Assembly (NCBI GenBank): GCA_964559865.1
Contig: CAZLJD010000021.1
Span: 57,999-121,998 of the forward strand
Reading direction: 5' to 3'
Length of the DNA: 64,000 bases
Source: an uncultured Synergistota bacterium
GTDB lineage: Bacteria; Synergistota; JAGHAJ01
Every line of letters begins with the position of its first letter. The first letter of the stretch is position 1. Of this stretch, positions 25,451 through 41,716 are shown one piece after another. Below the pieces are notes generated by a model. The model was not told the DNA's origin, made no database searches, and saw only the letters and a list, made by a program, of their open reading frames with translations. Position numbers and translations under genes: made by a program.

Positions 25451-25456
25451 CTTTCC

Positions 25457-25521: not shown

Positions 25522-26259
25522 ATGAGGAGAGTTGTTCCCACAAGATTGAGAAAGGACAAGTACACATTCTCCGCAGAAGAATTGGAAGGTATGTTTTCCG
25601 TACCATCGAAGATGCCAAAATGGGAGCCGATGTACACAGAGCTCACACACAGAGATGGCAGTAAACACCAGGTACTAATCAGAGAGATCAAGAAAGAGGA
25701 GATTGACCCAATGCTTGCATTCATCAAAAGGTACACAGAAATCGACTACGACTACTACGACATAGTTTCTGCAAGGGTATATGCAGAGCTACTTGCCATC
25801 AAAAGAAACAGAATGAAAGACGAATACTTCTTCCTTGCACTGGAAAATGGAAGTCCTGTGGGAATAATAAACGGTAGGATCATGAACAAAGATATAAATA
25901 TAAGCCTCCACACAATGGTATTTAAGAGAAGGATTAACGCTGGTCCAATACTTTTCTACGCAAAGTGCTGGTATGCATTCGAAATCTGTGGTCAACAGGA
26001 ATTTTGGGCAACATTCGAAAGTTACAATGGCTGGAGACTTGCAGGTCTCGGCATGGGACTACCCACCTACAAGTGGCCAGATGTCCAACACGAGCTTGGT
26101 GGCGCTAAGGTTTACTATCTCTCACGTGAGATGTGGGAACTAACAATAAGAGACGAGTATCCAGAGCAGGTAGCAAGGGCAAAACTCATGCCTAATCCTC
26201 CAAAAGAGTTAATCGAAGCAAACGAAAAGCTGATAATTCCAGAAGAAATAGAGGTTTAA
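25522..26259 (+). CDS. Uncharacterized conserved 245-aa protein. Paralog of 40979-41716. Family not recognised.
   Basis: Clear coding periodicity, strong promoter and SD, and an intrinsic terminator downstream. High similarity to the second copy across the YYDIV.ARVYAE...NGR.MN.DINISLHTM.FKR...YAKC.Y.FE...QEFWAT.ESYNG...GLGM..P.Y.WPDVQHELGGA.VYY block. Confidence 0.7.
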   Translation: MRRVVPTRLRKDKYTFSAEELEGMFSVPSKMPKWEPMYTELTHRDGSKHQVLIREIKKEEIDPMLAFIKRYTEIDYDYYDIVSARVYAELLAIKRNRMKDEYFFLALENGSPVGIINGRIMNKDINISLHTMVFKRRINAGPILFYAKCWYAFEICGQQEFWATFESYNGWRLAGLGMGLPTYKWPDVQHELGGAKVYYLSREMWELTIRDEYPEQVARAKLMPNPPKELIEANEKLIIPEEIEV

Positions 26260-26274
26260 ATTAAGATAGTTCAA

Positions 26275-26310
26275 GGGGGAGAAGCTTAAGCTTCTCCCCC
26301 TTTTGTTTTT
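26275..26310 (+). terminator. Rho-independent terminator (possibly bidirectional) between convergent genes
   Basis: GGGGGAGAAGC-TTAA-GCTTCTCCCCC is an 11-bp perfect stem. It is followed by TTTTGTTTTT. Confidence 0.7.
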
Positions 26311-28660
26311 ACTCTACTTCTTTCTTTCCCTGTAGAATGGCAAGCGCTACCTTCTCCGCAGTAACAGGCATAGATTTAATTCTGATACCAAGCGCATCCT
26401 CAACAGCATTTGCAACCATAGGAGCAGCAGGTATCATTGTATGCTCAGATATTCCTCTTGCACCAAACGGGCCGTCAGGTTGCGGAACCTCCACTATTAT
26501 AGGTACTATTTCTTTAGGCACATCCATTGCGGTGGGTATCTTGTAGTCAGTAAAGTTAGGGTTCAATACCTTACCCTTATCATCAAATCTCATATCTTCG
26601 TAGAGCACAGTTGCCAAGCCCTGGAGCAGACCACCGTTTATCTGACCCTTCACAAGATCCGGATTTATCGCTTTACCCGCATCTACAGCTTCCACTGCCT
26701 TCAGAACTCTCATCTTGCCAGTTTCCTTGTCTATTTCAAGCACCACGGCACCAGCACCAACCGTGTAGTGCACATTTGGGTGTCCTCCCTGCGAAGTCTC
26801 CGGATCGTCTACCGTAGTCGTAAACTCCGGCATAAATATACCCCTACCAAGGATAGGTCCACCTCTATACGTACCATCATGCGTCTGAATACCGTTTATA
26901 ACGAAGTCCTTAAGCGGCAGTTGAAATTCTGGATCAGTCTTGCACTTTACCTTCTCGTCCTCAAGGTATAATGTCTCCTTCTCGAGGTGATATGCCTGAT
27001 GCACAACCTCAAATATCTGCTCACGGGCGTCTAAGGCTGCCCTCTTAACTGCATTACCGCAGGACCAAGTAACATGAGAAGCAACTGTCTGCCATTCGTA
27101 TGGATTCCTATCCGTATCAGGTAGCTCAACTCTTATCTTCTCAATGGGCACAGAGAGTATCTCGGCAGCGATCTGTGCCATAACTGTCATATACCCCTGC
27201 CCTATCTCCATACCAGACACTACGATGTTTATACTACCATCTTCGCTGAACTTCAGGAATGCAGCAGAAGATGTATTCGGAGGCATAGCAGGTGCCTTCC
27301 AGAATATGGCAAACCCCTTACCAATAACCTTGTTGGGATCCTTCGATTCCTCTTTCTTGCCCCACTCAACCTCCTTGGCTACCTTATCTATGGCTTCTAT
27401 CAAACCATTTGGATTCATAGGTGCACCATAGGCGACAGGGTCTCCCCTTCTAATGGCATTTTTTCTTCTAAACTCAACAGGGTCCATACCTATCATCTTC
27501 GCTACTCTCGTCATATGGGACTCAATAGCAAAATGGGTTTCAGAATATCCAAAACCTCTATATGGACCCGCCGCCGGCTTGTTTGTATATACGCATATAG
27601 AGTCTATCCAGACATTAGGTATCCTGTAAGGACCAGTTGCAGAGAGACCCGCTGCATTCACAACATTTGCCCCATACTCTGCATACGGACCAGCATCCCA
27701 GTAAAGCTCATTCTTCAAGGCAACGATCGTACCATCTTTCTTAACCCCTACTTTTATCTTTGAAACAAGTGCCTGTCTCATATATGTGTTGTAGAACTCC
27801 TGTGCCCTCGTCCACCTAACTTTCACCGGATGCCCCTTCACAACCGTAGCAAGAGCCACAGCAAGTATCTCCATCGAAACCCCAGCCTTACCCCCAAAAC
27901 CGCCACCAACATACGGGACCACAACTCTGATATCTTTGTGGCTTATACCCAATGGTGCTAACGCCTGTGCAAACAGATTTCTCTGAGTATGGGGTGACTG
28001 TGAGCTGGACCACACCGTAATCCTTCCAGAATAATCATAAAGGGCAACAGATATATGCGGTTCTATACAGCAATGAGCATACCTCGGCACCCTGTAAGTG
28101 TCCTCAAATACAAAGTCTGCCTCGGCAAACGCCTTTTCAACATCACCCTTTCTGACTTTTCTCCAATGTGCAATATTTGTGCCCGGCTTCGGGAAGTACC
28201 ACGGCACATGCCAGTAATTGGCAAGGTCAGGATGTATTATTGGAGCATTATCCTTTAATGCCTCCATCTGATCGAGCACATAAGGAAGCTCCTCATATTC
28301 TACCTTCACCAGTTTCGCTGCCTTCTTAGCAGCCTTTGGATTTCTCGCCAGGACAGCCGCCACCTGTTCACCGATAAACCTAACCCTATCCTGTGCAAAG
28401 ACATATCTATCGTGCATATACAAACCAAACCTATAAGGGAAATCCTTACCAGTAACTACCTTAACTACGCCCGGAACCTTCTCTGCTTCAGATGTGTCTA
28501 TGCTCTTTATCAAGGCATGCGGATAAGGACTCTCCACTATCTCTGCGTAAAGGAGATTAGGACCAAAATCCAAATCATCTACATACCTGGCAGCACCTGT
28601 AACCTTATCTCTTTCGTCAAGCCTCGTAAACGACTTACCCACATATTTAAGCTCTTCCAT
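26309..28660 (-). CDS. Molybdenum hydroxylase large (molybdopterin-binding) subunit, xanthine dehydrogenase/CoxL family
   Basis: 783 aa. Ald_Xan_dh_C-type N-terminus and the GGGFGGK signature (YVGGGFGGKAG). Sits in an M-S-L operon. Confidence 0.85.
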   Translation of the reverse strand: MEELKYVGKSFTRLDERDKVTGAARYVDDLDFGPNLLYAEIVESPYPHALIKSIDTSEAEKVPGVVKVVTGKDFPYRFGLYMHDRYVFAQDRVRFIGEQVAAVLARNPKAAKKAAKLVKVEYEELPYVLDQMEALKDNAPIIHPDLANYWHVPWYFPKPGTNIAHWRKVRKGDVEKAFAEADFVFEDTYRVPRYAHCCIEPHISVALYDYSGRITVWSSSQSPHTQRNLFAQALAPLGISHKDIRVVVPYVGGGFGGKAGVSMEILAVALATVVKGHPVKVRWTRAQEFYNTYMRQALVSKIKVGVKKDGTIVALKNELYWDAGPYAEYGANVVNAAGLSATGPYRIPNVWIDSICVYTNKPAAGPYRGFGYSETHFAIESHMTRVAKMIGMDPVEFRRKNAIRRGDPVAYGAPMNPNGLIEAIDKVAKEVEWGKKEESKDPNKVIGKGFAIFWKAPAMPPNTSSAAFLKFSEDGSINIVVSGMEIGQGYMTVMAQIAAEILSVPIEKIRVELPDTDRNPYEWQTVASHVTWSCGNAVKRAALDAREQIFEVVHQAYHLEKETLYLEDEKVKCKTDPEFQLPLKDFVINGIQTHDGTYRGGPILGRGIFMPEFTTTVDDPETSQGGHPNVHYTVGAGAVVLEIDKETGKMRVLKAVEAVDAGKAINPDLVKGQINGGLLQGLATVLYEDMRFDDKGKVLNPNFTDYKIPTAMDVPKEIVPIIVEVPQPDGPFGARGISEHTMIPAAPMVANAVEDALGIRIKSMPVTAEKVALAILQGKKEVE

Positions 28661-28672
28661 CTCGCTCCCCCC

Positions 28673-29134
28673 TTACTGTTTCTTGGATGCGTCGAGTATC
28701 GCTTCAATTATAGATACATATCCGGTACATCTACACAAATTACCTGCTATAGCCTCTTTTACTTCCTCCTCAGTAGGATGCGGATTCTTCTCCAATAGCT
28801 CTGTAGCGGTAAGTGTCATACCAGGGGCACAAAAACCACACTGGAATGAATTGTGTTCTATGAAAGACTCCTGCAACGGCGTAAGCCCATCCTTGGACAG
28901 CCCTTCAAGCGTCACTATCTCTGCTCCATCTACCTCTATAGCAAATATGAGACAACTCCTAACCGACTTTCCGTTGAGTAAAATAGTACACGCACCGCAG
29001 TCACCTCTACCGCAAGCGTACTTAGGTGTCTTCACACCCAATTTCCCCCTTAAGACTTCAAGGAGAATGTCATTGGGTTCTACCTCTACACTCCTCATTT
29101 CGCCATTCAGTTTGAATGTTATCTTCTTCTTCAT
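28673..29134 (-). CDS. Molybdenum hydroxylase small subunit, 2x[2Fe-2S] (CoxS/XdhC-ferredoxin type)
   Basis: 153 aa. Plant-type cluster CGRGDCGACT plus the second cluster CGFCAPGM...CRCTGY. Confidence 0.85.
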   Translation of the reverse strand: MKKKITFKLNGEMRSVEVEPNDILLEVLRGKLGVKTPKYACGRGDCGACTILLNGKSVRSCLIFAIEVDGAEIVTLEGLSKDGLTPLQESFIEHNSFQCGFCAPGMTLTATELLEKNPHPTEEEVKEAIAGNLCRCTGYVSIIEAILDASKKQ

Positions 29135-29146
29135 GGCATATTCCCC

Positions 29147-30037
29147 CTATATAAGCCTCGTTCCATATTCTGGTCCTTCTCCCTTAAGACGACTTACCGC
29201 AGCTCTCAAAGCTCTCTTTAACATTACTTTAGACATGTGCATTCTATACTCTCTTGTAGCTCTTATATCCGTTATAGGAGATATTTCATCAACCACAGCT
29301 GCCATAGCTTCCTCCATCACACTCTCAGTGAGCTCCTTTCCACTAAGTATTGCCTCTATCTTTCTGGCTCTCACAGGCTTAGGGCCAACTGCACAGAAAG
29401 CAACCCTATACTCATTTCCCTCAATAGCAAGTACACCAACTCCTACCTGTGCGAGATCCTCACCATCGTATCTACCAAGCTTTATGTATGCCCCACCATG
29501 CCTTTTTTCCAAGACAGAGAGAGATACACCAACAACCATCTCTCCCTTTTCCAGAGCCGTCTTCCTTGGGCCAAGAAACCAATCCAGAACAGGGATCTTT
29601 CTCTCACCAGATGGTCCCTTAACTACAACATTAGCCTCATACAACAAAACAGCTGGTCCACTATCCAAAGATGGTACTGCAGAACACATGTTACCCACCA
29701 ATGTAGCCCTATTTCTTATACCCATAGACGCCACACTCTTGGAAGCCTCCCAAAGCACAGGGAAATTTTTCCTAACTACTTCAGAGTCTATCAGCTCATT
29801 AAAGGTAACGAGGGCACCCACAAAGAGGTGCCCATCTTTAAATTCAAACCTTTTAAGTTCCTCTATTCCCTTTATATCAACCACTGCTTTGGGGGTTTCA
29901 AATCCGTCCTTAACACGGACCACAAGGTCTGTTCCACCTGCAAGTACTGCCGCATCCTTTCCGTAATCCGAAAGTAGCTTAACGACTTCGTCCACGCTTC
30001 CAGGCTTAAAATACTCAAACTCATGCACTATAGCCAT
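29147..30037 (-). CDS. Molybdenum hydroxylase FAD-binding medium subunit (CoxM/XdhB type)
   Basis: 296 aa. FAD_binding_5 with an AGGTDL motif. CO-dehydrogenase-flavoprotein C-terminal domain. Confidence 0.85.
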   Translation of the reverse strand: MAIVHEFEYFKPGSVDEVVKLLSDYGKDAAVLAGGTDLVVRVKDGFETPKAVVDIKGIEELKRFEFKDGHLFVGALVTFNELIDSEVVRKNFPVLWEASKSVASMGIRNRATLVGNMCSAVPSLDSGPAVLLYEANVVVKGPSGERKIPVLDWFLGPRKTALEKGEMVVGVSLSVLEKRHGGAYIKLGRYDGEDLAQVGVGVLAIEGNEYRVAFCAVGPKPVRARKIEAILSGKELTESVMEEAMAAVVDEISPITDIRATREYRMHMSKVMLKRALRAAVSRLKGEGPEYGTRLI

Positions 30038-30058
30038 TACATTACACCCCCTAACTCT

Positions 30059-31699
30059 TTATTCTGGCATCCTAAACGCAACAAACCTACCCCACATAGA
30101 AGTAGCCTCTATTGCTCTGATGAGGTAAGCAGCTATGTAATACCTCCCACTCCCAAGGTTTCTTATGTCATTTCCAAGGTTCTCAGCATGCACAAGATGC
30201 TGCGGGAAGAGTTTTATGTGCATTACCTGATAGAACTCATCTATAGGATACATCTCGTCCCAATCCTTTCCAAATGCCTCTATTAGCTTCCTGTTTGCCT
30301 CCTCAAAGGTCTTTGGATGCCATATTCTCATTATAGTATTCATAGGGTGATCTGCGCTAACAGCATCTACTCCTATCCACTTTATCTTCATATCGAGTGC
30401 CCACTGTGGAAAGTCTGGAGATGGACCTGGGTGCTTGACCATATATCTAAATTCATCAGATTCTGGGGTATTCCAACCGTATTTCCACCATCCCGTCTTT
30501 ATAATCAGGATGTCTCCTTCACGAATGTCTACTACCTTCTTTATCATTTCTGGAGTATAAACACTCGAATTACTCACCATATCAGATATATCTGCAATAA
30601 CCCCAGGGCCCACCCACTCTTCGAGTGGCACTTGACCTATAGGCCTACCCGCTGGATAGAAGTGTATTTCACCATCCATGTGCGTTGCAAGGTGAATACT
30701 CGCATTACAGATAGAGCCGTTTCTCCCCATCCCAAACTGCTGGCCACCAACCCTCTTGTGGAACCTTACGCTCAATGGTTCGTAGTTCAACCACTGTGGT
30801 GTCCTCACGCTAAACGGCAACGTCATGTCGTACTTCTCCATGTTGTCAAGGGCACTGTAAAACTCCTCCTCATCCATACCATCTGGAGGCTGATAGGCAA
30901 CTACCCTAACCCACGCTGCTTCCGTTTCCATAAACGGTATAGGATAACCTACTATCCACGCACGCTGGTTTTTGAGTTTATCTACATCCCCACCTATGCT
31001 CTCAATAAACACAAGGTGAGCATTAGGCACCTTTATGTGCATGAGTTCATAATACCAGTCAGGTGGGAACATTTCGTCCCAGCTCTTGCCGTATTTTTCT
31101 TTTAATTTTGCCTCAGCCTTCTCAAAGTGTAGCTTGTGCATATACCTTATAGGTGTATTCATGGGATGTTCTATACTTCCACAATCCACCCCTACCCACT
31201 TAAACTTCATCTTTATAGCCCAATCAAAGAAATCTGGAGATGGACCCGGGTGCTGAACAAGATACTTAAATTCACTGGAGTCTGGTTTCTCCCAAGAATA
31301 CTTGCTGTAACCCGTATATATAATAAGTATGTCACCCTCACGGACATCTGCTTTCTTCATTATCATTTCTGGAGTATAGAGACTATAGTCGGAAACCTCA
31401 TCAGATATGTCAACTATAACACCCCTCCCACCCAGCTCATCCAGAGGGATGTCGCTTATTGCCCTACCTGCAGAGTTAAAACTCGTCTCTCCAACGAGAT
31501 GTGTACCTGTAGTGTTGCTCCAATTTAGTATCTGACCGTTTGCACCCTGACCACCACCAAATGCACCAGTAACCCTCTTAAAGAAGTGGATACCAAGGGC
31601 TTTGTCACCCGGCCATGGGGGGGTATATATACTCAGAGGCTGGGTGATATCATACATCTTCGCTGAGCTTAACATCCTTATGAACTCTTCATTTCTCAT
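30059..31699 (-). CDS. Tandem-domain cyclase-family (KynB/isatin-hydrolase-like, PF04199) metal-dependent hydrolase
   Basis: 546 aa made of two homologous ~260-aa cyclase domains. Domain 2 keeps the HxxTHxDxxxH metal motif (IHLATHMDGEIHF). Domain 1 has it degenerate (TTGTHLVGETSF). Both are paralogous to the 254-aa cyclase at 42699-43463. Confidence 0.75.
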   Translation of the reverse strand: MRNEEFIRMLSSAKMYDITQPLSIYTPPWPGDKALGIHFFKRVTGAFGGGQGANGQILNWSNTTGTHLVGETSFNSAGRAISDIPLDELGGRGVIVDISDEVSDYSLYTPEMIMKKADVREGDILIIYTGYSKYSWEKPDSSEFKYLVQHPGPSPDFFDWAIKMKFKWVGVDCGSIEHPMNTPIRYMHKLHFEKAEAKLKEKYGKSWDEMFPPDWYYELMHIKVPNAHLVFIESIGGDVDKLKNQRAWIVGYPIPFMETEAAWVRVVAYQPPDGMDEEEFYSALDNMEKYDMTLPFSVRTPQWLNYEPLSVRFHKRVGGQQFGMGRNGSICNASIHLATHMDGEIHFYPAGRPIGQVPLEEWVGPGVIADISDMVSNSSVYTPEMIKKVVDIREGDILIIKTGWWKYGWNTPESDEFRYMVKHPGPSPDFPQWALDMKIKWIGVDAVSADHPMNTIMRIWHPKTFEEANRKLIEAFGKDWDEMYPIDEFYQVMHIKLFPQHLVHAENLGNDIRNLGSGRYYIAAYLIRAIEATSMWGRFVAFRMPE

Positions 31700-31711
31700 A
31701 CTATCGCCTCC

Positions 31712-32959
31712 TTACTCAATATTGTACTTCTCTGCAAAAGCCTCAAGGGCCTTCTCAAAAACCTCCATAGGAGCATCCACCAAACCCGCACCTACTTGTC
31801 CAACTCCCGGCTTCTTGTGTGCAACACCGGTGTCGATAAACGGAGGTATTCCCTTTTCCACTACCTTTACTATATCTATACCTGTTGGTGTGCCTCTAAA
31901 GTCCAGGAAAGGTATCTGGTAAACATTGTTCTCCCCAATAGTTATCTCATACATAGCAAGGGTCTTTTCGACGGATTCCTTGACGGTACCACCCACAAAC
32001 TGTATTATAGCCGGTGCCGCTGCTATTGCAAAACCTCCAAGACCAGCTGTCTCCATTATTGCACTGTCACCAATGTCAGGGTTAACATCCTCCTTTGTAA
32101 ATCCAGGGAACAACAGGACATCTGGTACAGGTGCCGGCGCCGTAAACCACTGATCACCAAGTCCCGAAACCTGAATACCAAAATCTGTCCCATTCCTAGC
32201 CATAACTGTTACCATAGTACTGCCTTCTATATTCTTTGCAGGATCGAGACTCACCTTCGCACTCGTCATAGCAAAACCAAGAAATGTATGTATATTCTCC
32301 TCCATAAATCTCATAACCTCATTGGTTTCATGGTGGTCCTTCATCGTCTCTGCCATAGCACCAGCAATCTTAGCAAAGAGCACATAAGATGCTGCTCTAC
32401 TCCTATTGTGTAACTCATCTCCCATATGCAACGCCTGTGCTATTATATTCTTGAGGTCAAGTTTTCCTATTTTTCTTATAGCCCTCTGCCACACCGGGAA
32501 CATGACATTTTCAAGCCACTTCAATCTCTCAATGACATCGGGTGAATAGGCACCCATTCTCAAGACCTTACCTATACCTTCGTTAAGCGTCTGGTAAGCT
32601 CTATTGCCGTGAGCCTCATTTTCGGTGATTATTACTGGCATCGAAGCCGATACTATGCCAGCCATTGGCCCTACTGTATTGTGATGATGACAAGGAGAAA
32701 ACTCTATCTCTCCAGATGCAGCCAGCTCCTCTGCCTCTTCGGGGGTCTTTGCAAGTCCTTCATACATCAGAGCACCTATAACCGCTCCTCTCTGTGGCCC
32801 ACACATTCTATCCCATGTAATAGGAGGTCCTGCGTGCAGAATGAGATTTTTCTTCATCCCGGGGATAACATCTATAGCCTTCCCCATATCCACCCACATC
32901 GGCTTAGCCTCTAACAAGATCTTCAATGCCTTCTCATTCGCCTTCTCGATATCAACCAT
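31712..32959 (-). CDS. ylbE: DUF1116 protein, YlbE homolog (putative oxamate-carbamoyltransferase subunit)
   Basis: 415 aa. Blocks LHAGPPITWDRMCGPQRGAVIGA, PCHHHNTVGPMAGIVSASMPV and DGNRAYQTLNEGIGKVLRMGAY match, as far as I recall, the conserved blocks of E. coli YlbE. Confidence 0.75.
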   Translation of the reverse strand: MVDIEKANEKALKILLEAKPMWVDMGKAIDVIPGMKKNLILHAGPPITWDRMCGPQRGAVIGALMYEGLAKTPEEAEELAASGEIEFSPCHHHNTVGPMAGIVSASMPVIITENEAHGNRAYQTLNEGIGKVLRMGAYSPDVIERLKWLENVMFPVWQRAIRKIGKLDLKNIIAQALHMGDELHNRSRAASYVLFAKIAGAMAETMKDHHETNEVMRFMEENIHTFLGFAMTSAKVSLDPAKNIEGSTMVTVMARNGTDFGIQVSGLGDQWFTAPAPVPDVLLFPGFTKEDVNPDIGDSAIMETAGLGGFAIAAAPAIIQFVGGTVKESVEKTLAMYEITIGENNVYQIPFLDFRGTPTGIDIVKVVEKGIPPFIDTGVAHKKPGVGQVGAGLVDAPMEVFEKALEAFAEKYNIE

Positions 32960-32993
32960 TGCTCTGCCTCCTTACTAAAATTGTTTTATTCAA

Positions 32994-33019: not shown

Positions 33020-33404
33020 AATTATTTCACCCCTCAGTTACCACCTCCTTTCAAGCTACAATATACCATAGCAGTTGAATTTTTTCAAGTTTTCCAATAT
33101 ACAAATATTTACAAAGTTGCAGGCTTTCAAAACTTACCGTTTGTGTAATCTTCTAAATTTATAAGACAAAATCAATGACCTAAGCCTGCAGAATGTCAGT
33201 AAAATACTACAAAAACTCAATCTTCTCTTTCTTACTCATAAACTTGACAAAAGCAGCAGTTGTGATATACTTTCGAGCAGTTAATGAAGTGTTACACTTC
33301 TTCAAATTGGGGGGTGGTAGCGAAAGAAAGCTATCAAGTGTTTGAAGCATACTGAAAAGTGATCTACGGTTTAGGTAATCACTTTGAGGAGGGGAGGTTA
33401 CAGT

Positions 33405-34940
33405 ATGGCAGAGCAAACAACTATGCAAAAGGGTTGGGTTATATACCCAATAGGAAGCAGGCCTAAAATGGCATTGTCCTTCTTCCTTGGATTACAGCAC
33501 TATCTTACCATGTTCGGCGCAACCGTTAGTATACCATTGATACTCAGCGGTGCCATGAAGATGCCACCTCAGGAAACAGCACTCTTAATTTCCACCATAT
33601 TTCTGGCAAGCGGTATAGCAACACTCTTACAGCAGTACATAGGTAACAGACTACCTATAGTTCAAGGTGGGAGCTTTTCGTTTCTTGGCCCGGCATTCGC
33701 CATCATTGCATTGGTAGGTCAGCACGGCGGAAACTGGCAAAACATGATACAAACCGTATCCACAGCAATACTGTTTGGCTCATTCTTTGAAATTATACTT
33801 GGTTATAGTGGTTTGATGGGACAGATCAAAAAGGTCATAGGTCCAATAACGATAGCACCAACAATTACAATGATAGGACTCTCTCTGTTTGGGGTAGGTG
33901 CCCCATTCATGGCAGGAAACTGGACAATATCGGTCATCACCTTAATAGCACTAATACTCTACTCGCAGGTCTTCGCAAGAAAGTCGAGGGTATTTCTATT
34001 GTTCCCAGTTCTTCTGGCTATACTTACGGGTTGGATACTCTCTCTGATAGGAACGCTTACAGGCATAATTCCTCCTGGAAACCCTGCAAACCTTGCAAAA
34101 GGACTCCAACTAATACACAACTCTCCTTGGTTCTGGATAAGGCCAATCATACCATTCAAGTGGGGATTTCCACCCATTGACTCTGTAGTAACAGCAGGGG
34201 CAATAGGTACATTGGCAGGATACATAGCATCAATGGTGGAATCCATCGGAGACTATCACTCCTGCGCAAGGATAGCTGAAGGGCCTGTACCCACAGCAAG
34301 GATGATATCAAAAGGACTTGGGGCTGAGGGTGTTGGCTGTCTCGTAGCAGGTATTCTGCAGACCGGCAATGGAACCACATCTTACACCGAGAATATCGGT
34401 GCAATTGGTATCACGAGGGTAGCATCCAGGCGAGTGATAAAAGCAGGTGCAACTATAGCCATTGTAATACCATTCTTTGCAAAGTTTGGTGCGATCCTGG
34501 CCACACTACCGCAACCTGTCGTGGGCGCAATGTATGTGGGACTATTCGGCTTGATTGCAGCAGTCGGGTTATCCAACCTTCAGTTCGTCAACCTGAACAA
34601 CTCGAGGAATCTGTTTATACTTGGTCTGGCACTCTTCAGCGGTCTCACATTCCCAGCATACTTCAACGCCCACCCAATACATTGGGGTGCTCCCGGGACA
34701 CTAACAGGGACTCTCGGAGATATAGCTCAGACTATACTAACAACCGGCATGGCAGTATCAGCCTTTATCGCAATGGCTCTGGACAACTGGCTGCCTGGTG
34801 CAACACGAGAGGAAAGAGGCCTCGCAGTTTGGGAGAGAGAAGCAACAGAAGAGGCATGGATCGAAGCAGAGAAAGAGTGGGCAAAGATGAAAGTTGGGGA
34901 AGAGAGAAAATTAGAAGGATTCGAAGGCTCACAAAGTTAG
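33405..34940 (+). CDS. NCS2-family nucleobase:cation symporter (xanthine/uracil/urate permease type)
   Basis: 511 aa from ATG 33405 (GGAGGGGAGG SD). About 12 TM helices. NCS2-like N-terminus LGLQHYLTMFGATVSIPL. Confidence 0.8.
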   Translation: MAEQTTMQKGWVIYPIGSRPKMALSFFLGLQHYLTMFGATVSIPLILSGAMKMPPQETALLISTIFLASGIATLLQQYIGNRLPIVQGGSFSFLGPAFAIIALVGQHGGNWQNMIQTVSTAILFGSFFEIILGYSGLMGQIKKVIGPITIAPTITMIGLSLFGVGAPFMAGNWTISVITLIALILYSQVFARKSRVFLLFPVLLAILTGWILSLIGTLTGIIPPGNPANLAKGLQLIHNSPWFWIRPIIPFKWGFPPIDSVVTAGAIGTLAGYIASMVESIGDYHSCARIAEGPVPTARMISKGLGAEGVGCLVAGILQTGNGTTSYTENIGAIGITRVASRRVIKAGATIAIVIPFFAKFGAILATLPQPVVGAMYVGLFGLIAAVGLSNLQFVNLNNSRNLFILGLALFSGLTFPAYFNAHPIHWGAPGTLTGTLGDIAQTILTTGMAVSAFIAMALDNWLPGATREERGLAVWEREATEEAWIEAEKEWAKMKVGEERKLEGFEGSQS

Positions 34941-35406: not shown

Positions 35407-35414
35407 GGTGAATC

Positions 35415-35873: not shown

Positions 35874-35879
35874 AGGAGA

Positions 35880-36242: not shown

Positions 36243-36243
36243 G

Positions 36244-36618: not shown

Positions 36619-36633
36619 CGGGAGGGAAAGACA

Positions 36634-36933: not shown

Positions 36934-36952
36934 AAGCAGCAGGAGGATAGCC

Positions 36953-37369
36953 ATGCGGATTAGCGTGTACGATCCACAACGGTGTATAGGGTGTGGAAGC
37001 TGTATGTTTGCATGTGCAAGGAGAGCAGGAGATGGAGGGCTAAGCAATACTGCCATAGCGGTAAGGTCATCTGGAGGGATAAGCAAAGGGTTTAGTGTTA
37101 TTGTATGCAGGGCGTGTACAGACCCTCCCTGTTCAAAGGTGTGTCCCACAAATGCACTGATCCCCAGAAAGGGTGGAGGTGTGATCCTCAATCCTACAAA
37201 GTGTATCGGATGTGAAAACTGCCGAGAAGCATGCCCTATCGGAGCAGTCTTCTGGAACGAGGAGATAAACAAACCCGTAATATGCGTGCAGTGTGGATAC
37301 TGTGTGGAGTTTTGCCCTCATGGAGTACTAAAAATGGAAGATAGTGGGGTGGCTGCACATGTTGGATGA
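36953..37369 (+). CDS. Ferredoxin-like [4Fe-4S] electron-transfer subunit paired with the second AOR
   Basis: 138 aa with CIGCGSCMFAC, CRAC...C, CIGCENCREACP and CVQCGYCVEFCP motifs. Overlaps the AOR start. Confidence 0.8.
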   Translation: MRISVYDPQRCIGCGSCMFACARRAGDGGLSNTAIAVRSSGGISKGFSVIVCRACTDPPCSKVCPTNALIPRKGGGVILNPTKCIGCENCREACPIGAVFWNEEINKPVICVQCGYCVEFCPHGVLKMEDSGVAAHVG

Positions 37370-39122
37370 CAACAGATTATCAAAGGTACTGTATATAGAC
37401 CTAACCAAGAAAAGTTATTGGGTCAGAGATAGAATAGACCTATTTTCCAAGTATATAGGAGGAACTGGAGTAGGTATAAAGTTGCTCCAAGAAGAATGTC
37501 CAAAGGAAACAGATCCACTAGGAAAGGACAATCCCATCATATTTGCAGTAGGCCCATTGACAGGGTTATTCCCTCTTGCTTCAAAGACAGTAGCAATGTT
37601 TAAATCACCGCACACAGGCAACTTAGGTGAAAGCCACTCTGGGGGAAGGAGTGCCATAGCAATAAAGATGGCAGGGTATGGCGCTATCGTAATAAAGGGA
37701 AAAAGTGACATCCCGGTATACCTTGCAATTCACGGAGACCATGTCTACTTCAGAGACGCATCTGCATTATGGGGGATGAAAAGCTGTTTCACAGTCGGTA
37801 GGATTATTAGAGAGAACGAACCTGGAGCTGGGTTGAGAACAATCATGAGAATAGGCAAAGCAGGGGAAAACCTCGTAAGCTACGCAAGTGTCACCACAGA
37901 AACGTTCAGACACTTCGGGAGGTTGGGACTTGGAGCTGTATTCGGCAGTAAAAAGCTGAAGGGAATCATAATCTCAGGAAAGAGGAGCATAAAAGTACAG
38001 GACAAAAAAACCTACAAGGAGCTATACTCTGAAATATACAAAGCTGCAGTGGATTCTCCACTCATGAAAAAGTACCACGATCTCGGCACACCCGAAAACA
38101 TTCTAAAATTAAACGAAATGGGAGGACTACCTACAAGGAACCTCCAAAAAGGACATTTCGAGTTTGCAGAAAATATATCAGGTGAAAACTTCGCAGAACA
38201 TTATCTCGGCAGAAGACTTGCCTGTTTCCACTGTCCAGTTGGGTGTATACACTTAGCCGCATTAAGGGAACCATACGAAGACGAGCCGTACTTCTATAAA
38301 ACATCCATGATCTCCTACGACTACGAACCTATCTTTGCGCTTGCGACAATGCTCGGTATATCAGAGCCTGAAGGCTTTTTAAAGCTGATGGATAGCGTGG
38401 AGAAGTACTGCATAGATGCAATGAGCACCGGTGTAGTGCTTGCATGGGCAACCGAAGCCCAAGAGAAGGGAATCATCACGGAAAAGGAGACTAACGGCTT
38501 AAATCTCAAGTGGGGAGACTATAAGACCTACATACAGGCATTGAGCTTCATAGTGGAACAGCCAAACACATTTTACAAAGCGCTGTCAAAAGGGGTAGAA
38601 CATGCTTCATCTATTTACGGCGGTAAAGAATTTGCAATGGCATTTGGCGGCAATGAAATGCCAGGCTATCACACAGGACCAGGAGCGCACCTGGGATTCC
38701 TAACAGGTGCAAGGCATAGTCACCTTGACAGTGCCGGCTACAGCATAGACGAAAAGATACTGCCAAAAACCAGCTTATCAGCTGAAGAACTTGGCAGGAG
38801 ACTCTTAGAGGAAGAAAGGTGGCGTCAGATACTTTCAAGCCTTGTGATATGCTTCTTTGCGCGGGGCATATATTCGCCACAAATAACTACCAACGCCTTG
38901 AAGATTGCAGGGTTCAGCTTCTCAGAAGAAGACCTAAAAGAGACCGGAAAGGTTATACACGCAGAAAAATACAGGTTCAAAGAACAAGAAGGGTTTTCCC
39001 TGAAGAATATCCGCATACCCCAGAGGATATTCCAAACACCGTCCGCAGTAGGTAATATAGAAAAAGCATATATAGAAAGGGCTCTCAATTACATAAACTC
39101 AGAGATATCGTCAGCCATTTAA
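37359..39122 (+). CDS. Second tungsten AOR-family oxidoreductase catalytic subunit
   Basis: About 587 aa from ATG 37359 (GGGGTGG SD, overlapping the ferredoxin stop). AOR_N-like N-terminus (YIDLTKKSYWVRDRIDLFSKYIGGTGVGIKLL) and AOR C-terminal domains. Confidence 0.8.
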   Translation: MLDDNRLSKVLYIDLTKKSYWVRDRIDLFSKYIGGTGVGIKLLQEECPKETDPLGKDNPIIFAVGPLTGLFPLASKTVAMFKSPHTGNLGESHSGGRSAIAIKMAGYGAIVIKGKSDIPVYLAIHGDHVYFRDASALWGMKSCFTVGRIIRENEPGAGLRTIMRIGKAGENLVSYASVTTETFRHFGRLGLGAVFGSKKLKGIIISGKRSIKVQDKKTYKELYSEIYKAAVDSPLMKKYHDLGTPENILKLNEMGGLPTRNLQKGHFEFAENISGENFAEHYLGRRLACFHCPVGCIHLAALREPYEDEPYFYKTSMISYDYEPIFALATMLGISEPEGFLKLMDSVEKYCIDAMSTGVVLAWATEAQEKGIITEKETNGLNLKWGDYKTYIQALSFIVEQPNTFYKALSKGVEHASSIYGGKEFAMAFGGNEMPGYHTGPGAHLGFLTGARHSHLDSAGYSIDEKILPKTSLSAEELGRRLLEEERWRQILSSLVICFFARGIYSPQITTNALKIAGFSFSEEDLKETGKVIHAEKYRFKEQEGFSLKNIRIPQRIFQTPSAVGNIEKAYIERALNYINSEISSAI

Positions 39123-39881
39123 GTCTTTACCGTACTTAACGGCAACTATCTCGGACATTATGCTGAGTGCTATCTCCTCTGGTCTTCTACCACCAATAGG
39201 TAAACCCGCAGGAGAGTGTACTCTTTTTAGTGCCTCTTCACTGAAACCATCTTTCAAAAGATGAGAGTAGATTGTTTGCCTCTTCTGGTCACTTGCAACC
39301 ATAGCGATGTAAGCAAACTCTTTGCCGAGTAACCCTCTGAGAACATCCTCATCAAACTTATGTGCAAAGGTGTTCACAACAACATAGGATGACAAATCTG
39401 GTTTCAGCTCTCTGGCAGCAGTATAAAACTCCTTCACAATTATCTCTTTCGCATCCGGGAATCTATCCTTATTGGCATAATCAGGTCTACTATCCACAAC
39501 AACAACATCAAAACCAACCAAAAAAGCCATTTTAGAGAGGTACCTTCCTATATGCCCCGCCCCAAATATCACCACCCTATCTTTAACCTTCACAGGGTCT
39601 ATAAACACATCTACATCTCCACCACAACCCTCTCCACCAGCTGACAATCGGTACTGTTTTAGTTCTGCTTTACCCTTCTCTATAACTTCCAATGCATCTC
39701 TTTTAACAAGCTCTTCCAACGTTCCCCCACCTATCGTGCCAGAGGTTCTACCGTCTATAGCAACAAGCATCTTTGCACCAGGCTCACGGGGAGAAGAACC
39801 ATAAGAAGCAACTACGGTAGCCACAGCAAACGCAACCCTGTTTTCCCAGAACTCCTGCATACGATGTAGAAGCTCTATCAT
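39111..39881 (-). CDS. XdhC/CoxI-family molybdenum cofactor insertion chaperone
   Basis: 256 aa. XdhC_CoxI N-domain (ASYGSSPREPGAKMLV) plus the Rossmann-like XdhC_C domain (VVIFGAGHIGRYL). Confidence 0.75.
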   Translation of the reverse strand: MIELLHRMQEFWENRVAFAVATVVASYGSSPREPGAKMLVAIDGRTSGTIGGGTLEELVKRDALEVIEKGKAELKQYRLSAGGEGCGGDVDVFIDPVKVKDRVVIFGAGHIGRYLSKMAFLVGFDVVVVDSRPDYANKDRFPDAKEIIVKEFYTAARELKPDLSSYVVVNTFAHKFDEDVLRGLLGKEFAYIAMVASDQKRQTIYSHLLKDGFSEEALKRVHSPAGLPIGGRRPEEIALSIMSEIVAVKYGKDLNG

Positions 39882-39885
39882 TCAG

Positions 39886-40914
39886 CTACCACCCCTTCCC
39901 TAACATACAATAAGGATAATTACAAACATCACAATGTCTACAAAATCCACCATGCCCCAGCCTCGCAATATCCTCATAGGTAATTATATCTCCTGCAAGA
40001 AGTCTTGGCAATATCACATCAAAGACTGTAATCTTGTAGAAAACACCTGCCGCAGGTATCCCAACAATGGGCACTTCACCCTTATATGCCAAAAGCAACA
40101 TAGAACCCGGCAACACAGGGGAACCATAGCGTATAATCTCTGCACCAGCAGAAGCTATACCACGAGGAGTAACATCATCTGCATCTACCGACATCCCCCC
40201 TGTACACACAACGATCTCTGCCCCCACAGATAAAAACTCCTGTATGGAAGATCTCACCATATCCTCATCATCTGGCACAATTCTGCTACCAATAAGCTCT
40301 GCACCATAATCTTCGACTTTGCTTTTCACAATATCCTTGAACCTATCCTTTATCCTACCCGTATATATCTCCGTGCCAGTCGTAACAAGTGCAACCTTTT
40401 TTTTCACATAAGGTTTCACCTTAACTACATATCTATACTTGGAGGCAACACTCTCAAATAAATTGACATATTCCTTTCTTAGGACAAGAGGAATAGCTCT
40501 AAAACCCGCTATCTTGTCACCCTTCTTTACAGGCGTATTGTTGTGAATTGTAGATACAGAAAACTCCCCTATCATGTTTAATTCAAATACTGCTTCCGCA
40601 TTCACCTTAACCAAACCGTCCACACCGGCTACAAGAGTAATCTTACCTTCAACAGGACCCTCAGAAGAGACATTTTCTCCTTTCATCCACTTCTCCATCA
40701 CATATGCAACATCATTCTCGTGCATCTCATCTGGGGATATTTCAAGCACATATATGTAATTTTTGCCTATATCCTTCAAAAGAGGTATATCCTCTTTTCT
40801 TATCACATGCCCCTTGCGAAAACCGGGACCTTTGTACTCTCCCGGAACAATCTTTGTCAAATCATAAGGTATCGTCATTCCCACCGCATCTTCAACCTTC
40901 ACTCGCTTGAGCAC
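39886..40914 (-). CDS. MoeA/MogA-like molybdopterin-binding (MoCF biosynthesis domain) protein with C-terminal Cys cluster
   Basis: 342 aa. TGGMSVDADD-type motif of MoeA domain 3. C-terminal CRHCDVCNYPYC. Confidence 0.6.
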   Translation of the reverse strand: MLKRVKVEDAVGMTIPYDLTKIVPGEYKGPGFRKGHVIRKEDIPLLKDIGKNYIYVLEISPDEMHENDVAYVMEKWMKGENVSSEGPVEGKITLVAGVDGLVKVNAEAVFELNMIGEFSVSTIHNNTPVKKGDKIAGFRAIPLVLRKEYVNLFESVASKYRYVVKVKPYVKKKVALVTTGTEIYTGRIKDRFKDIVKSKVEDYGAELIGSRIVPDDEDMVRSSIQEFLSVGAEIVVCTGGMSVDADDVTPRGIASAGAEIIRYGSPVLPGSMLLLAYKGEVPIVGIPAAGVFYKITVFDVILPRLLAGDIITYEDIARLGHGGFCRHCDVCNYPYCMLGKGW

Positions 40915-40978
40915 ACTTCATACCCCCCTCATACAAAAAGAGGGACGGGGCCTTCCCAAACCCCATCCCTTCAAACCC

Positions 40979-41716
40979 CTAAACGGTTACCTCATCGGGT
41001 ATAATGAGCTTCTCATTCTTCTTGAGGAGTTCCTCCGGTACGGGTCTCTGGAGTTTTGCACCTATATACCCCTCAAGGTAATCTTTCACAGTACTCTTCC
41101 AGTACTTGTAGTCCACATAGTACACACGGGCACCACCAAGCTCGTGCTGGACATCCGGCCAACGATAAGACGGTTGCGCCATTCCAAGCCCCCATCTCTT
41201 AAAACCATTGTAACTCTCGTATGTAGCCCAGAACTCCTTCTGATTGAGCGTCTCAAATGTATAATCACACTTTGCATAGTACATAGTTGCACCCACTCTG
41301 AAGCCTCTCTTAAATGCCATGGTATGCAAACTAATGTTTATATCTTCATTCATCAACCTACCATTCGCAAAACCTATCAGTTTACCATCTTCAAGTCCCA
41401 ACAACACATAAGGGTCTTTAAGCCTATTCCTGTACCAACCCAATATCTCCGCATATACCCTCGCTCCAACTATGTCATAAAAGTCATGGTCCACATCCAA
41501 GAAGTTACGCAAATACTTTAAAAGAAGGGGTGCTTCTTCTTTCTTAGCAGGCCTTATTACCATTGTTATTTTATCTCCGGCCTTGTTTTTCAGCTCCACC
41601 ATTGCAGGTTCAAACGGTGGGATATCCATAGATGGACCACTCAATATGGGTTCAATCTCCCTGATATTCAATCTAACTTCTTCATAACTTGACTTCTCCG
41701 GTGGTTCTTTCCACAT
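40979..41716 (-). CDS. Uncharacterized conserved 245-aa protein. Paralog of 25522-26259.
   Basis: Same length and conserved blocks as the first copy. SD and ATG are tightly spaced after the carbamate kinase gene. Confidence 0.7.
   Translation of the reverse strand: MWKEPPEKSSYEEVRLNIREIEPILSGPSMDIPPFEPAMVELKNKAGDKITMVIRPAKKEEAPLLLKYLRNFLDVDHDFYDIVGARVYAEILGWYRNRLKDPYVLLGLEDGKLIGFANGRLMNEDINISLHTMAFKRGFRVGATMYYAKCDYTFETLNQKEFWATYESYNGFKRWGLGMAQPSYRWPDVQHELGGARVYYVDYKYWKSTVKDYLEGYIGAKLQRPVPEELLKKNEKLIIPDEVTV

Follow-up and report, generated by a model that had tools for sequence, protein, structure and literature searches.

The analysed stretch of DNA (the window; 64,000 nucleotides from an uncultured Synergistota bacterium) carries two genes of 245 codons each, both with ATG starts, which we call copies A and B. 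Around them lie homologs of allF and allH in one operon and of allG in a second; either operon has a cyclase gene of its own and is associated with one of the GNAT-fold paralogs (Table 1). An earlier, sequence-only reading had described the two copies as bracketing a catabolic island. The copies do lie at both places, but the term is loose, since cluster-related genes also extend beyond them. On its left, A is flanked by a PreA-like gene, CoxD/CoxE-like genes and MobB; on the right of B lie the carbamate kinase (CK), cyclase, FdrA, AllH and PucR genes. Each copy directly adjoins Mo-cofactor genes (MobB and the CoxE-like gene next to A, XdhC and MoCF_biosynth next to B). The Mo-hydroxylase has XdhA as its best NCBIfam match, and because the score of 554.7 bits stays below the cutoff of 780, no substrate specificity was assigned to it.

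Table 1. Genes and putative signals in the window (positions count from its first nucleotide)
Feature	Position	Strand	Evidence or details
Genes upstream of copy A	20840..25372	+	PreA-like DHO_dh+Fer4 20840-22168; MoxR/CoxD-like AAA 22235-23113; unknown, 189 aa, 23131-23700; VWA CoxE-like 23713-24612; MobB+FeS 24623-25372
Palindrome TTGTTGAAATATTCAACAA (25431-25449), then sigma-70-like promoter TTGACA-17-TAAAAT (25457-25485), upstream of A	25431..25485	+	consensus matches only
Copy A, 245 aa, GNAT-fold, divergent A-type clade of the unnamed family	25522..26259	+	BLASTP, AF2 model
Terminator-like hairpin, 13-bp stem, common to the convergent copy A and Mo-hydroxylase large-subunit gene	26273..26302	.	
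XDH-family Mo-hydroxylase	26309..30037	-	FAD subunit 29147-30037; 2Fe-2S subunit 28673-29134; Mo subunit 26309-28660
Two-domain cyclase-family amidohydrolase	30059..31699	-	Pfam Cyclase, two matched stretches
AllG-like subunit, first gene of the AllG-cyclase-Mo-hydroxylase operon	31712..32959	-	Pfam AllG, E=1.4e-93
NCS2 nucleobase permease	33384..34940	+	
XdhC-like gene (39111-39881) and MoCF_biosynth (molybdopterin-binding) domain gene (39886-40914)	39111..40914	-	Mo-cofactor maturation genes, downstream of B
Terminator-like hairpin, 13-bp stem, directly after B	40941..40970	-	
Copy B, 245 aa, main-clade family member	40979..41716	-	
Carbamate kinase	41740..42687	-	NCBIfam arcC 459.7 bits (cutoff 358); Pfam AA_kinase
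Single-domain cyclase-family (PF04199) metal amidohydrolase	42699..43463	-	closest solved structure kynurenine formamidase, E=1e-9
FdrA/AllF-like subunit, succinyl-CoA-synthetase-alpha-like, with CoA-binding domain	43672..45225	-	NCBIfam FdrA 564.7 bits (cutoff 433); Pfam CoA_binding + Ligase_CoA
AllH-like subunit, 11-nt overlap with the FdrA start	45215..46084	-	Pfam AllH, E=1.4e-13
PucR-family regulator	46084..47688	-	

A comparison of the two copies by BLASTP gave 120 identities over 241 positions (50%; 69% positives). With an E-value of 6e-86 this similarity is far beyond chance, and the proposed paralogy of A and B holds. The sequence blocks that they had been said to share are present as well, apart from two slips: copy B reads FYDIV instead of YYDIV and KEFWAT instead of QEFWAT. 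Because copy B starts only 23 nt after the CK gene and is directly followed by a hairpin terminator, we regard it as the last gene of an AllH-FdrA-cyclase-CK-B unit, which plausibly forms one transcript.

Copy A is a separate gene, convergent to the Mo-hydroxylase operon. The promoter-like site, palindrome and terminator ascribed to it earlier were all found, the promoter-like site and palindrome as consensus matches: the promoter-like site agrees with the consensus at 11 of 12 positions, and the palindrome is perfect (8+3+8). Genes of the A-type in related loci also have TTGACA/TAtAAT-like promoters of their own, and some carry a palindrome just upstream, again judged by consensus. We considered the palindrome of copy A as a shared operator and rejected this idea, given that it occurs only once in the window and that A-type genes elsewhere do not keep its sequence upstream. 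At the same place, two related loci carry palindromes of another sequence.

Neither paralog matched a Pfam or NCBIfam family at threshold, and NCBIfam returned nothing at all; phmmer and profile searches against PDB sequences also gave no significant match. The best Pfam match was Acetyltransf_1 with 14.5 bits (cutoff 20.7; E=0.045). This family was found below threshold in 3 of 16 members (best E=0.0096) and was the only one matched by more than one of them; some members are already labelled “N-acetyltransferase” at NCBI. The AF2 model of copy A (pLDDT 82.3) has the same topology as that of copy B, and a fold comparison with Foldseek returned probability 1.0 for GNATs alone, with PA3270 (the PacT toxin) and RimJ as best structural matches. 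The initial description as an unrecognised family is thus right in that no named sequence family claims A or B, but the fold itself is recognisable.

The predicted models contain the GNAT core, beta1-alpha1-alpha2-beta2-beta3-beta4-alpha3-beta5-(alpha4)-beta6-beta7, and an hhalign comparison with a canonical GNAT places beta2 to beta4 in register. GNAT motif A, Q/R-x-x-G-x-G/A, forms the CoA pyrophosphate loop between beta4 and alpha3. In the main clade, the corresponding region reads R137-G138-x-[RK]-x-G142-A143, and the invariant G142 falls on the central Gly of this loop. The motif is thus partly kept: the flanking positions deviate from it and vary in divergent clades, and the RG pair is lost in these as well as in the A-type. 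Helix alpha4, normally in contact with CoA, is cut short, and a loop of 20-25 residues takes its place; this loop is highly conserved but modelled with a pLDDT below 50.

Conservation within the family is high, at about 65% identity across phyla. Even relatives of 23-46% identity retain G115, S129, H131, G142, K149 and G171 without exception and D81, E90 and R120 almost always, and they mostly keep the ES and HELGG motifs. An exhaustive HMMER search of 1.84 billion representatives recovered 185 clusters without any spill-over into ordinary GNATs, and among the 150 best-scoring clusters it found no fusions (longest protein 249 aa). Relatives occur in 441 of 185,579 species genomes from many, mostly uncultured phyla, among them Caldisericota, Chloroflexota, Elusimicrobiota, Acidobacteriota, Thermotogota, Atribacterota and Spirochaetota. 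By their predicted models, A and B are members of a compact, sequence-isolated and unnamed branch of the GNAT (acyl-CoA N-acyltransferase) fold.

The genomic context was analysed by tblastn counts in loci for which about 10 kb were fetched per side; loci are termed well-flanked if each side spans 8 kb or more. At least one module gene is present in 58 of 80 family-anchored loci, and FdrA in 38 of the 80. FdrA, AllG, AllH or cyclase genes accompany the family in 28 of the 39 well-flanked loci. The most frequent immediate neighbours of 86 family genes on the same strand are AllH (24) and cyclase (21) genes. The order family gene-AllH-FdrA-AllG recurs, and even divergent members (34-41% identity) keep an FdrA-AllG-cyclase-family gene order. 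Absence of such linkage in other genomes had been named as an argument against a role in the pathway; instead, linkage is strong but not obligate. About 28% of the well-flanked loci have no module gene within the ∼10 kb fetched per side, and in the converse direction the family is present in 9 of 20 AllG-anchored loci, so that about half of the AllG modules lack it nearby. Leptolinea-type loci combine the family gene with a cyclase, an Mmd pump and a Mo-hydroxylase, with FdrA and AllG not detected in the locus. Some copies have housekeeping neighbours (rbfA-truB-ribF or glycosyltransferases, for example), and three Caldisericota loci have the family gene in front of rbfA-nrnA-truB-ribF.

Duplication is not peculiar to the window. 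Extra copies arose separately in its lineage (together with Caldisericum) and in Chloroflexi, and they adjoin module genes in both cases: FdrA-AllG in Chloroflexi and, for the A-type, the Mo-hydroxylase, downstream of which they lie. In 8 metagenome loci, A-type matches with 57-65% identity to copy A are convergent to the Mo-hydroxylase large-subunit gene; copy A itself clusters with L036_2708. The duplication had been taken to suggest a dedicated function, either catalytic or regulatory. Its recurrence beside module genes would fit a catalytic role better than a regulatory one.

Recurrent extra neighbours of the family include a methylmalonyl-CoA-decarboxylase-type Na+ pump and genes of pyrimidine type, namely cytosine-deaminase-like (CodA-like; E=2e-80 to cytosine deaminase) genes, nucleoside phosphorylase (PNP_UDP), dCTP deaminase, PreT/PreA and NCS2 permeases. 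The set of MmdA, OAD-beta and biotin-carrier genes was found in 12 family-anchored versus one or two AllG-anchored loci, and in Elusimicrobia HMG-CoA-lyase and CoA-transferase genes lie beside the family gene. In six AllG loci without the family gene, its slot is taken by a family III CoA-transferase. No AllG locus has both genes (0 overlap of 27 and 6; hypergeometric p ∼0.06-0.08, calculated by hand). We treat this mutual exclusion as suggestive only, because of the p-value, because the six loci represent just three independent architectures and because both genes co-occur in an Elusimicrobia locus. Taken together, the neighbours point to a pyrimidine catabolism that would end in acyl-CoA. 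Among the genes of the window, PucR and the xanthine-permease-like and XdhA-like best matches would fit a purine substrate equally well.

Based on these observations, the paralogs probably provide the enzyme for an as yet unassigned step in a pathway without a description so far, in which a nitrogen-containing ring compound, probably a pyrimidine, would be broken down with a gain of ATP. The XDH-type Mo-hydroxylase would oxidise the N-heterocycle, most likely uracil or thymine derived from cytosine or nucleosides, to a lactam whose ring a cyclase-family amidohydrolase would open. The AllFGH-type enzyme could then phosphorolyse the acyl-ureide to carbamoyl phosphate, from which carbamate kinase would form ATP. 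We favour, with about even confidence, A and B as catalytic and probably CoA-dependent acyl-transfer enzymes that are accessory to core components of this module. Their most likely site of action would be the nitrogen of the amide or ureide that ring opening produces; in a candidate reaction, (methyl)malonyl-urea or (methyl)malonamate would serve as donor and CoA as acceptor of the (methyl)malonyl group. The acyl-CoA product may then be decarboxylated by the adjacent Mmd-type Na+ pump in many genomes, and the two copies may serve the two sub-operons or two substrates. A bolder version, which we consider speculative and rather unlikely, has the family perform a non-canonical GNAT reaction, either a carbamoyl transfer or the thiolysis by CoA of (methyl)malonyl-urea or malonamate as N-acyl-urea or amide substrate, within an undescribed energy-conserving “oxidative” pyrimidine fermentation of uncultured anaerobes. 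Here, the family would work together with the cyclase-family ring hydrolase, AllFGH-type phosphorylase, carbamate kinase and Mmd-type pump, with ATP gained from the ureide carbon and a sodium gradient from the malonyl carbon. In either version, a GNAT that lets CoA thiolyse an amide or acyl-urea would run “backwards”, for which we found no precedent. Further points against the favoured reading are the partly kept motif A, the truncated alpha4, the well-flanked loci without module genes and the AllG modules without the family.

Alternatively, the family could provide a fourth subunit of an AllFGH-type complex that is non-catalytic or independent of CoA, such as a specificity or assembly subunit or a carbamoyl-handling GNAT scaffold. 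The frequent pairing with AllH (24 of 86 genes) in a recurrent order, the unusually high conservation and the low-confidence modelling of the most conserved loop, as expected if it becomes ordered only on a partner, are consistent with such a subunit, and methylcarbamoyl transfer by GNAT scaffolds has been reported (PMC8072286). We nevertheless consider it unlikely: three subunits suffice for activity of the E. coli AllFGH enzyme, which has no such gene (PMC11326118), about half of the AllG-type loci lack the family, Leptolinea-type loci keep it without detected FdrA or AllG, no fusion to a module protein occurs among the 150 best-scoring clusters, and catalysis is favoured by the number of polar residues that stay invariant in the canonical catalytic cleft. 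Somewhat less likely still is a regulatory role, in which a protein lysine acetyltransferase of the Pat/AcuA-like kind would tune flux by acetylating an enzyme of the pathway, for instance the FdrA-like subunit with its CoA-ligase fold. Such proteins are among the structural matches but rank no better than dozens of small-molecule GNATs, and the paralogs carry no effector-sensing domain. Moreover, the family combines many invariant polar residues with very high conservation, which is to our knowledge atypical of protein acetyltransferases, and a pathway step better accounts for the extra copies that two separate lineages have next to module genes.

GNAT-fold decarboxylases carry a pair of Ser/Thr and His, which the invariant Ser129 and His131 on beta4 recall. 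An enzyme of the malonyl-CoA decarboxylase type or of the CurA/GphF loading-module type (decarboxylating GNATs are cited in PMC8072286) might act on a (methyl)malonyl-thioester, -amide or -ureide, and the adjacent Mmd-type decarboxylase genes do suggest a malonyl-type intermediate; we regard this possibility as improbable. A pathway-unrelated role, as type II toxin, RimJ-like ribosomal-protein acetyltransferase or Mo-enzyme maturation accessory, is very improbable: it draws on the PA3270 and RimJ matches, the Caldisericota rbfA-nrnA-truB-ribF loci and the Mo-cofactor genes abutting both copies, but the species distribution is not that of a housekeeping gene and the neighbours conserved elsewhere are AllH and cyclase, not Mo-maturation genes. 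Two of these roles were rejected. No small antitoxin ORF adjoins either copy among the ORFs of the window (A lies between a 150-nt promoter region and a terminator, B between CK and a terminator), and the adjacency to Mo-cofactor genes is not conserved elsewhere.

In the literature we came across no account of either the family or the FdrA/AllG/cyclase/Mo-hydroxylase module, and two papers from 2025 that deal with urate degradation by anaerobes do not mention any of these genes. A combination of Mo-hydroxylase, cyclase-type amidohydrolase, AllFGH-type carbamoyl-phosphate former and carbamate kinase, often joined by a Na+-pumping acyl-CoA decarboxylase, appears undescribed. The function of AllFGH was assigned only in 2024, and the family is a highly conserved module component for which homology offers no hint of function. 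With its reaction assigned, the step that is missing between ureide cleavage and acyl-CoA metabolism would probably come to light, and the GNAT scaffold might gain a new type of reaction. It would also improve the annotation of about 1,300 proteins now called “hypothetical” or generically “N-acetyltransferase”, and of nucleobase fermentation potential in metagenomes.

The closest GNATs by structure, the RimJ/RimL/PA3270(PacT)-like branch (PDB 1yre, 8gxj, 2z0z, 6c30), share 9-16% identity with the paralogs and give no significant sequence or profile match. Unlike these proteins, A and B have a 37-residue N-terminal extension, a C-terminal helical extension and, in place of a full alpha4, the highly conserved ES(Y)NG...WPDxQHELGG loop, and their context is catabolic rather than toxin-antitoxin or ribosomal. 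Acyl-CoA-dependent N-acylation as a step of a catabolic pathway is known from arginine N-succinyltransferase (AstA), which provides a precedent for an enzyme of this fold within a nitrogen-compound catabolic operon, by likeness of logic.

The known oxidative pyrimidine pathway ends in urea and malonate without energy conservation, and we know of no GNAT in it. This pathway of aerobes, with uracil/thymine dehydrogenase, barbiturase and ureidomalonase (cited in PMC3758960 and PMC4051656), is nonetheless the closest chemical template: a Mo-hydroxylase acts first, and amidohydrolysis then opens the ring to give an acyl-ureide (ureidomalonate), steps which gene content would suggest here. Barbiturase is described in PMC3758960 as having the cyanuric-acid-hydrolase (“Toblerone”) fold, whereas the window encodes members of the cyclase (PF04199) family. 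AllFGH, the oxamic transcarbamylase of E. coli, converts acyl-urea and Pi to carbamoyl phosphate and acts together with AllK (PMC11326118), and homologs of FdrA/AllF, AllG, AllH and carbamate kinase are all present in the window. The E. coli all operon lacks a GNAT-fold gene, a cyclase-family hydrolase and a Mo-hydroxylase, whereas the window has all three. The predicted logic is nevertheless the same as in the AllFGH/AllK system: an acyl-ureide and phosphate would yield carbamoyl phosphate and, from this, ATP.

The two ORFs that the sequence-only reading had taken for paralogs are confirmed as 245-codon genes with ATG starts, located at 25522-26259 on the plus strand (copy A) and 40979-41716 on the minus strand (copy B). 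Their products show 50% identity and 69% similarity in a two-gap alignment of 241 residues (E = 6e-86). The identical blocks quoted for them are present, apart from two minor misreadings: in copy B the sequence is FYDIV and KEFWAT, not YYDIV and QEFWAT. The promoter, palindrome, terminator-like hairpin and convergence on the Mo-hydroxylase operon ascribed to copy A can each be found in the sequence, and a GGAGG ribosome-binding site precedes the gene. Because copy B follows the carbamate kinase gene after a gap of 23 nt and has a hairpin immediately 3′, it looks like the final gene of an AllH-FdrA-cyclase-carbamate kinase-copy B unit, apart from the downstream XdhC/MoCF_biosynth genes. Judging from this layout, co-transcription of the unit is plausible.

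Layout and coordinates of features in the window
Feature	Position	Strand	Remarks
Promoter-like site of copy A, TTGACA-17-TAAAAT	25457-25485	+	Consensus match
Perfect palindrome TTGTTGAAATATTCAACAA	25431-25449		Just 5′ of copy A promoter-like site; single occurrence in window
Hairpin, 13-bp stem	26273-26302		Common to copy A and convergent Mo-hydroxylase operon
Terminator-like hairpin, 13-bp stem	40941-40970		Directly 3′ of copy B
ES(Y)NG...WPDxQHELGG loop, residues 165-195, copy A	26014-26106
ES(Y)NG...WPDxQHELGG loop, residues 165-195, copy B	41132-41224
Block 1: PucR, AllH, FdrA/AllF, single-domain cyclase (PF04199), carbamate kinase, copy B, MoCF_biosynth, XdhC		-	In this order; allH-allF at 43672-46084
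Block 2: AllG, two-domain cyclase, XDH-family hydroxylase FAD, 2Fe-2S and Mo subunits		-	In this order; allG at 31712-32959; copy A convergent on this block
NCS2 nucleobase permease		+	Between the two blocks
PreA-like DHO_dh+Fer4 protein, MoxR/CoxD-like, VWA/CoxE-like, MobB		+	5′ of copy A; PreA-like gene at 20840-22168
PAS histidine kinase and LuxR-type response regulator	9460-11540		Ahead of glycyl-radical cluster
Anaerobic cluster	11643-20856		Left of island
Glycyl-radical enzyme, PFL-like plus Gly_radical, 838 aa	11643-14159		Followed by 4Fe-4S protein
Aldehyde:ferredoxin oxidoreductase	14822-16825		Followed by Pyr_redox_2 flavoprotein, GPR1/FUN34/YaaH-type channel, DUF6282
Radical-SAM activase	19891-20856
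Insertion separating island halves	35023-39122		Includes two small ORFs without confident family match
DsrE/DsrF/DsrH-like trio	35880-36933
Poly-ferredoxin	36953-37369
Second aldehyde:ferredoxin oxidoreductase	37344-39122

In related metagenome loci, A-type copies (the divergent clade of copy A) each carry their own strong TTGACA/TAtAAT-like promoter. Two of them (L104, ~19575-19800; L131, ~19585-19800) have a palindrome just 5′ of the –35 element, TGTTATAnnTATAACA-like, from which the window palindrome TTGTTGAAnnnTTCAACAA differs in sequence. Upstream of A-type genes, the architecture appears to be conserved, the putative operator sequence not.

The carbamate kinase exceeds the NCBIfam cutoff for arcC. 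For the XDH-family hydroxylase, the best equivalog is XdhA with 554 bits, below the cutoff of 780, and we therefore leave its substrate without assignment. The AllFGH-type genes are divided over two operons separated by about 11 kb. One combines allG and the Mo-hydroxylase genes, the other allH-allF and carbamate kinase; both halves have a cyclase-family gene of their own and a GNAT-fold paralog associated with them. The insertion between the halves, odd within a nucleobase cluster, might be a sulfur-relay or tungsten-enzyme unit.

At the sequence level, the family is as unrecognised as had been claimed. The copies gave only a sub-threshold Acetyltransf_1 trace in Pfam (14.5 bits vs a cutoff of 20.7), NCBIfam had no match to the paralogs, and neither single-sequence nor profile searches of PDB sequences matched the family. 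When 16 diverse members were scanned singly, Acetyltransf_1 matched three (best E = 0.0096) and was the sole Pfam family to match more than one. At the fold level the claim does not hold: structure prediction, decisive where the sequence methods fail, assigns the family a predicted GNAT fold. The model of copy B, based on a 40-sequence alignment, reached a pLDDT of 84.4 and a pTM of 0.83, that of copy A 82.3 and 0.80 with the same order of secondary structures. Aligned by hhalign with a canonical GNAT from a related locus, the family shows a weak match that covers β2-β4 and pairs the invariant G142 with the middle glycine of the CoA pyrophosphate loop. Compared with ordinary GNATs, the family has an N-terminal extension of ~37 residues, a C-terminal helical extension and a helix α4 of about one turn, in place of which lies the loop ES(Y)NG...WPDxQHELGG. 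This loop is the family's most conserved stretch and has the lowest model confidence, being the sole segment with an AlphaFold pLDDT below 50 in both paralogs; in these models it behaves as expected for a ligand- or partner-ordered active-site lid. By sequence, this is an isolated family with a remodelled α4 region and without a curated model; by fold, its members are GNATs. Literature searches for the family and for the FdrA/AllG/cyclase/Mo-hydroxylase module found no description of either.

A word-indexed search returned 1342 homologs. The 120 best listed, the window's own sequence aside, are 59-75% identical to copy B and derive from Elusimicrobia, Chloroflexi, Deltaproteobacteria, Caldisericia and others; some are named “N-acetyltransferase” by NCBI, most are nameless, and no Pfam domain is recorded for any of them. 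When 1.84 billion 50%-identity representatives were searched exhaustively with an HMMER profile, 185 clusters reached E ≤ 1e-3, the majority of them fragments, and no ordinary GNATs were drawn in at this threshold. None of the 150 best listed clusters exceeds 249 aa, so these offer no informative fusions. In the 40-sequence alignment, mean column identity is 63% with 51 invariant columns. After adding relatives down to 23% identity, G115, S129, H131, G142, K149 and G171 are still invariant, D81, V83, E90, G111 and R120 nearly so, and the ES and HELGG motifs are largely kept. Many of these residues map to β4, the end of β5 and β6, where GNAT active sites sit. The pattern looks like that of a catalytic site rather than a decayed one.

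Absence of linkage to the pathway genes elsewhere would have spoken against a dedicated function, but such linkage is found. Among GTDB species, each represented by one genome, relatives were detected in 441 of 185,579. The proteins of the window served as tblastn queries against the best 80 loci, all from MAGs; 58 of these contain one or more core module genes (FdrA 38, cyclase 45, AllG 31, AllH 27, Mo-hydroxylase subunits 29-30). Of the 39 loci flanked by 8 kb or more on each side, 28 contain FdrA/AllG/AllH/cyclase genes. Two gene orders dominate, family gene-AllH-FdrA-AllG-cyclase-FAD-FeS-Mo and FdrA-AllG-cyclase-family gene. Of 86 family genes, 24 have AllH and 21 the cyclase as the adjoining gene on the same strand within 400 bp. 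In the reverse test, 80 metagenome loci were collected with the window's AllG; 27 contain the family (9/20 with flanks of at least 8 kb). Eight have exactly the arrangement of the window, permease-AllG-two-domain cyclase-FAD-FeS-Mo followed by a convergent A-type copy that shares 57-65% identity with copy A. Members with no more than 34-41% identity to copy B still keep the order FdrA-AllG-cyclase-family gene.

The linkage is not obligate, since the family gene also occurs in other contexts. In Elusimicrobia it precedes genes for an isocitrate-dehydrogenase-family protein, HMG-CoA lyase and a family III CoA-transferase, or lies beside dCTP deaminase, nucleoside phosphorylase, cyclase and cytosine-deaminase-like genes. 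In three Caldisericota loci it is followed by rbfA-nrnA-truB-ribF, and in one Chloroflexi locus glycosyltransferases alone surround it. In a neighbour-joining tree, copy A falls in a deep clade with a Caldisericum sequence, and Chloroflexi have a separate second-copy clade, three of whose four members lie directly 5′ of FdrA-AllG. An Anaerolineae MAG (L071, 5853-21000) carries two complete tandem modules with one family copy each, FdrA-AllG-cyclase-family gene followed by family gene-FdrA-AllG-cyclase-Mo-hydroxylase, which suggests two substrates served by duplicated modules. In Chloroflexia loci (L075:10870-12893; also L056, L076, L077, L079), the family gene is directly followed by two conserved ORFs, one of 528 and one of 144 aa. 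Neither matches Pfam or NCBIfam, the larger also lacks a PDB-sequence match, and they may be further module components.

Which pathway does the module serve? In 2024, FdrA/YlbE/YlbF of E. coli were identified as AllFGH, the three-subunit oxamic transcarbamylase, which converts the acyl-ureide oxalurate and phosphate to oxamate and carbamoyl phosphate, from which the carbamate kinase AllK forms ATP (PMC11326118). From AllFGH together with carbamate kinase, an acyl-ureide intermediate is implied. The combination of a Mo-hydroxylase with a subsequent cyclase-family metal amidohydrolase, whose nearest solved relatives are kynurenine formamidases, implies that an N-heterocycle is hydroxylated at a position adjacent to nitrogen and that the lactam so formed is opened. 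Additional neighbours that recur among the loci suggest pyrimidines: cytosine-deaminase-like genes (E = 2e-80 to E. coli CodA; four family-anchored and three AllG-anchored loci), PNP_UDP phosphorylases (five and three), PreT/PreA-like pairs (two to three loci) and frequent NCS2 permeases. The window has the PreA-like gene alone (177 bits vs a cutoff of 335). In a Caldisericum contig (L036, 3929-6551), a PreT/PreA-type dihydropyrimidine-dehydrogenase pair lies between A-type and B-type copies, so that the Mo-hydroxylase route may be accompanied by a reductive pyrimidine step. A complete Na+-translocating decarboxylase set (carboxyltransferase closest to MmdA with 779 bits, OAD-γ-like, biotin carrier, OAD-β) is found in 12 family-anchored loci vs one to two AllG-anchored ones, and Leptolinea-type loci have one operon in the order Mo-hydroxylase-Mmd-cyclase-family gene. 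Judged by gene content, the simplest scheme would be the oxidative pyrimidine route in an anaerobic form, in which (5-methyl)barbiturate would arise by oxidation of uracil or thymine and then be opened to (methyl)malonyl-urea, an analogue of oxalurate longer by one carbon. Its phosphorolysis would yield carbamoyl phosphate, and the leftover skeleton would become (methyl)malonyl-CoA and feed the Na+ pump. A purine substrate would fit as well, the PucR, xanthine-permease-like and XdhA-like best matches being compatible with it.

The gene set offers candidate enzymes for hydroxylation, for ring opening, for carbamoyl phosphorolysis, for ATP formation and for decarboxylation. The step without one would be conversion of the amide/ureide product to a CoA thioester, or another acylation/deacylation at nitrogen, for which a GNAT-fold protein is a natural candidate. 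We favour CoA-dependent acyl transfer on a pathway intermediate, a catalytic role we consider about evenly balanced between right and wrong, because association with the Mmd pump is more frequent for the family than for AllG, because CoA-ester enzymes flank its gene even outside the module, and because a family III CoA-transferase takes its slot elsewhere. The last occurs in six AllG loci without the family (L093, L096, L125, L146, L155, L166), exactly 3′ of cyclase or 5′ of FdrA, and may reflect non-orthologous displacement; as these loci represent three independent architectures, the slot sharing is suggestive only. In L081, such a CoA-transferase and a GNAT-fold gene co-occur. CoA thiolysis of (methyl)malonyl-urea or malonamate is a far less probable version, since a GNAT would run in an unusual direction and no precedent was found. 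Reactions known for GNAT scaffolds include decarboxylation and condensation, as well as methylcarbamoyl transfer and serine-based ping-pong catalysis (PMC8072286), so that non-canonical chemistry is conceivable.

An additional subunit of the AllFGH-type complex, as AllH adjacency, extreme conservation and a loop predicted to be disordered in isolation might suggest, is unlikely, given that the E. coli enzyme is complete with three subunits and the Leptolinea operon has the family gene without FdrA/AllG. A Pat/AcuA-like protein acetyltransferase seems quite unlikely, and a GNAT-fold decarboxylase, redundant where the Mmd pump co-occurs, improbable. Roles outside the pathway are together very improbable: a TA toxin has no antitoxin ORF, the sparse phyletic distribution argues against unrelated roles such as RimJ-like housekeeping, and adjacency to Mo-maturation genes is not kept in other loci, contrary to a role in Mo-enzyme maturation.

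The family is worth experimental follow-up, although unprecedented chemistry would be conjectural at this stage; the module as a whole, seemingly undescribed, may be the more interesting object. A GNAT-like gene, a cyclase and a Mo-hydroxylase are all absent from the E. coli AllFGH operon, whereas the window module has all three, and the AllFGH-type subunit genes that form one operon in E. coli are distributed over two in the window.
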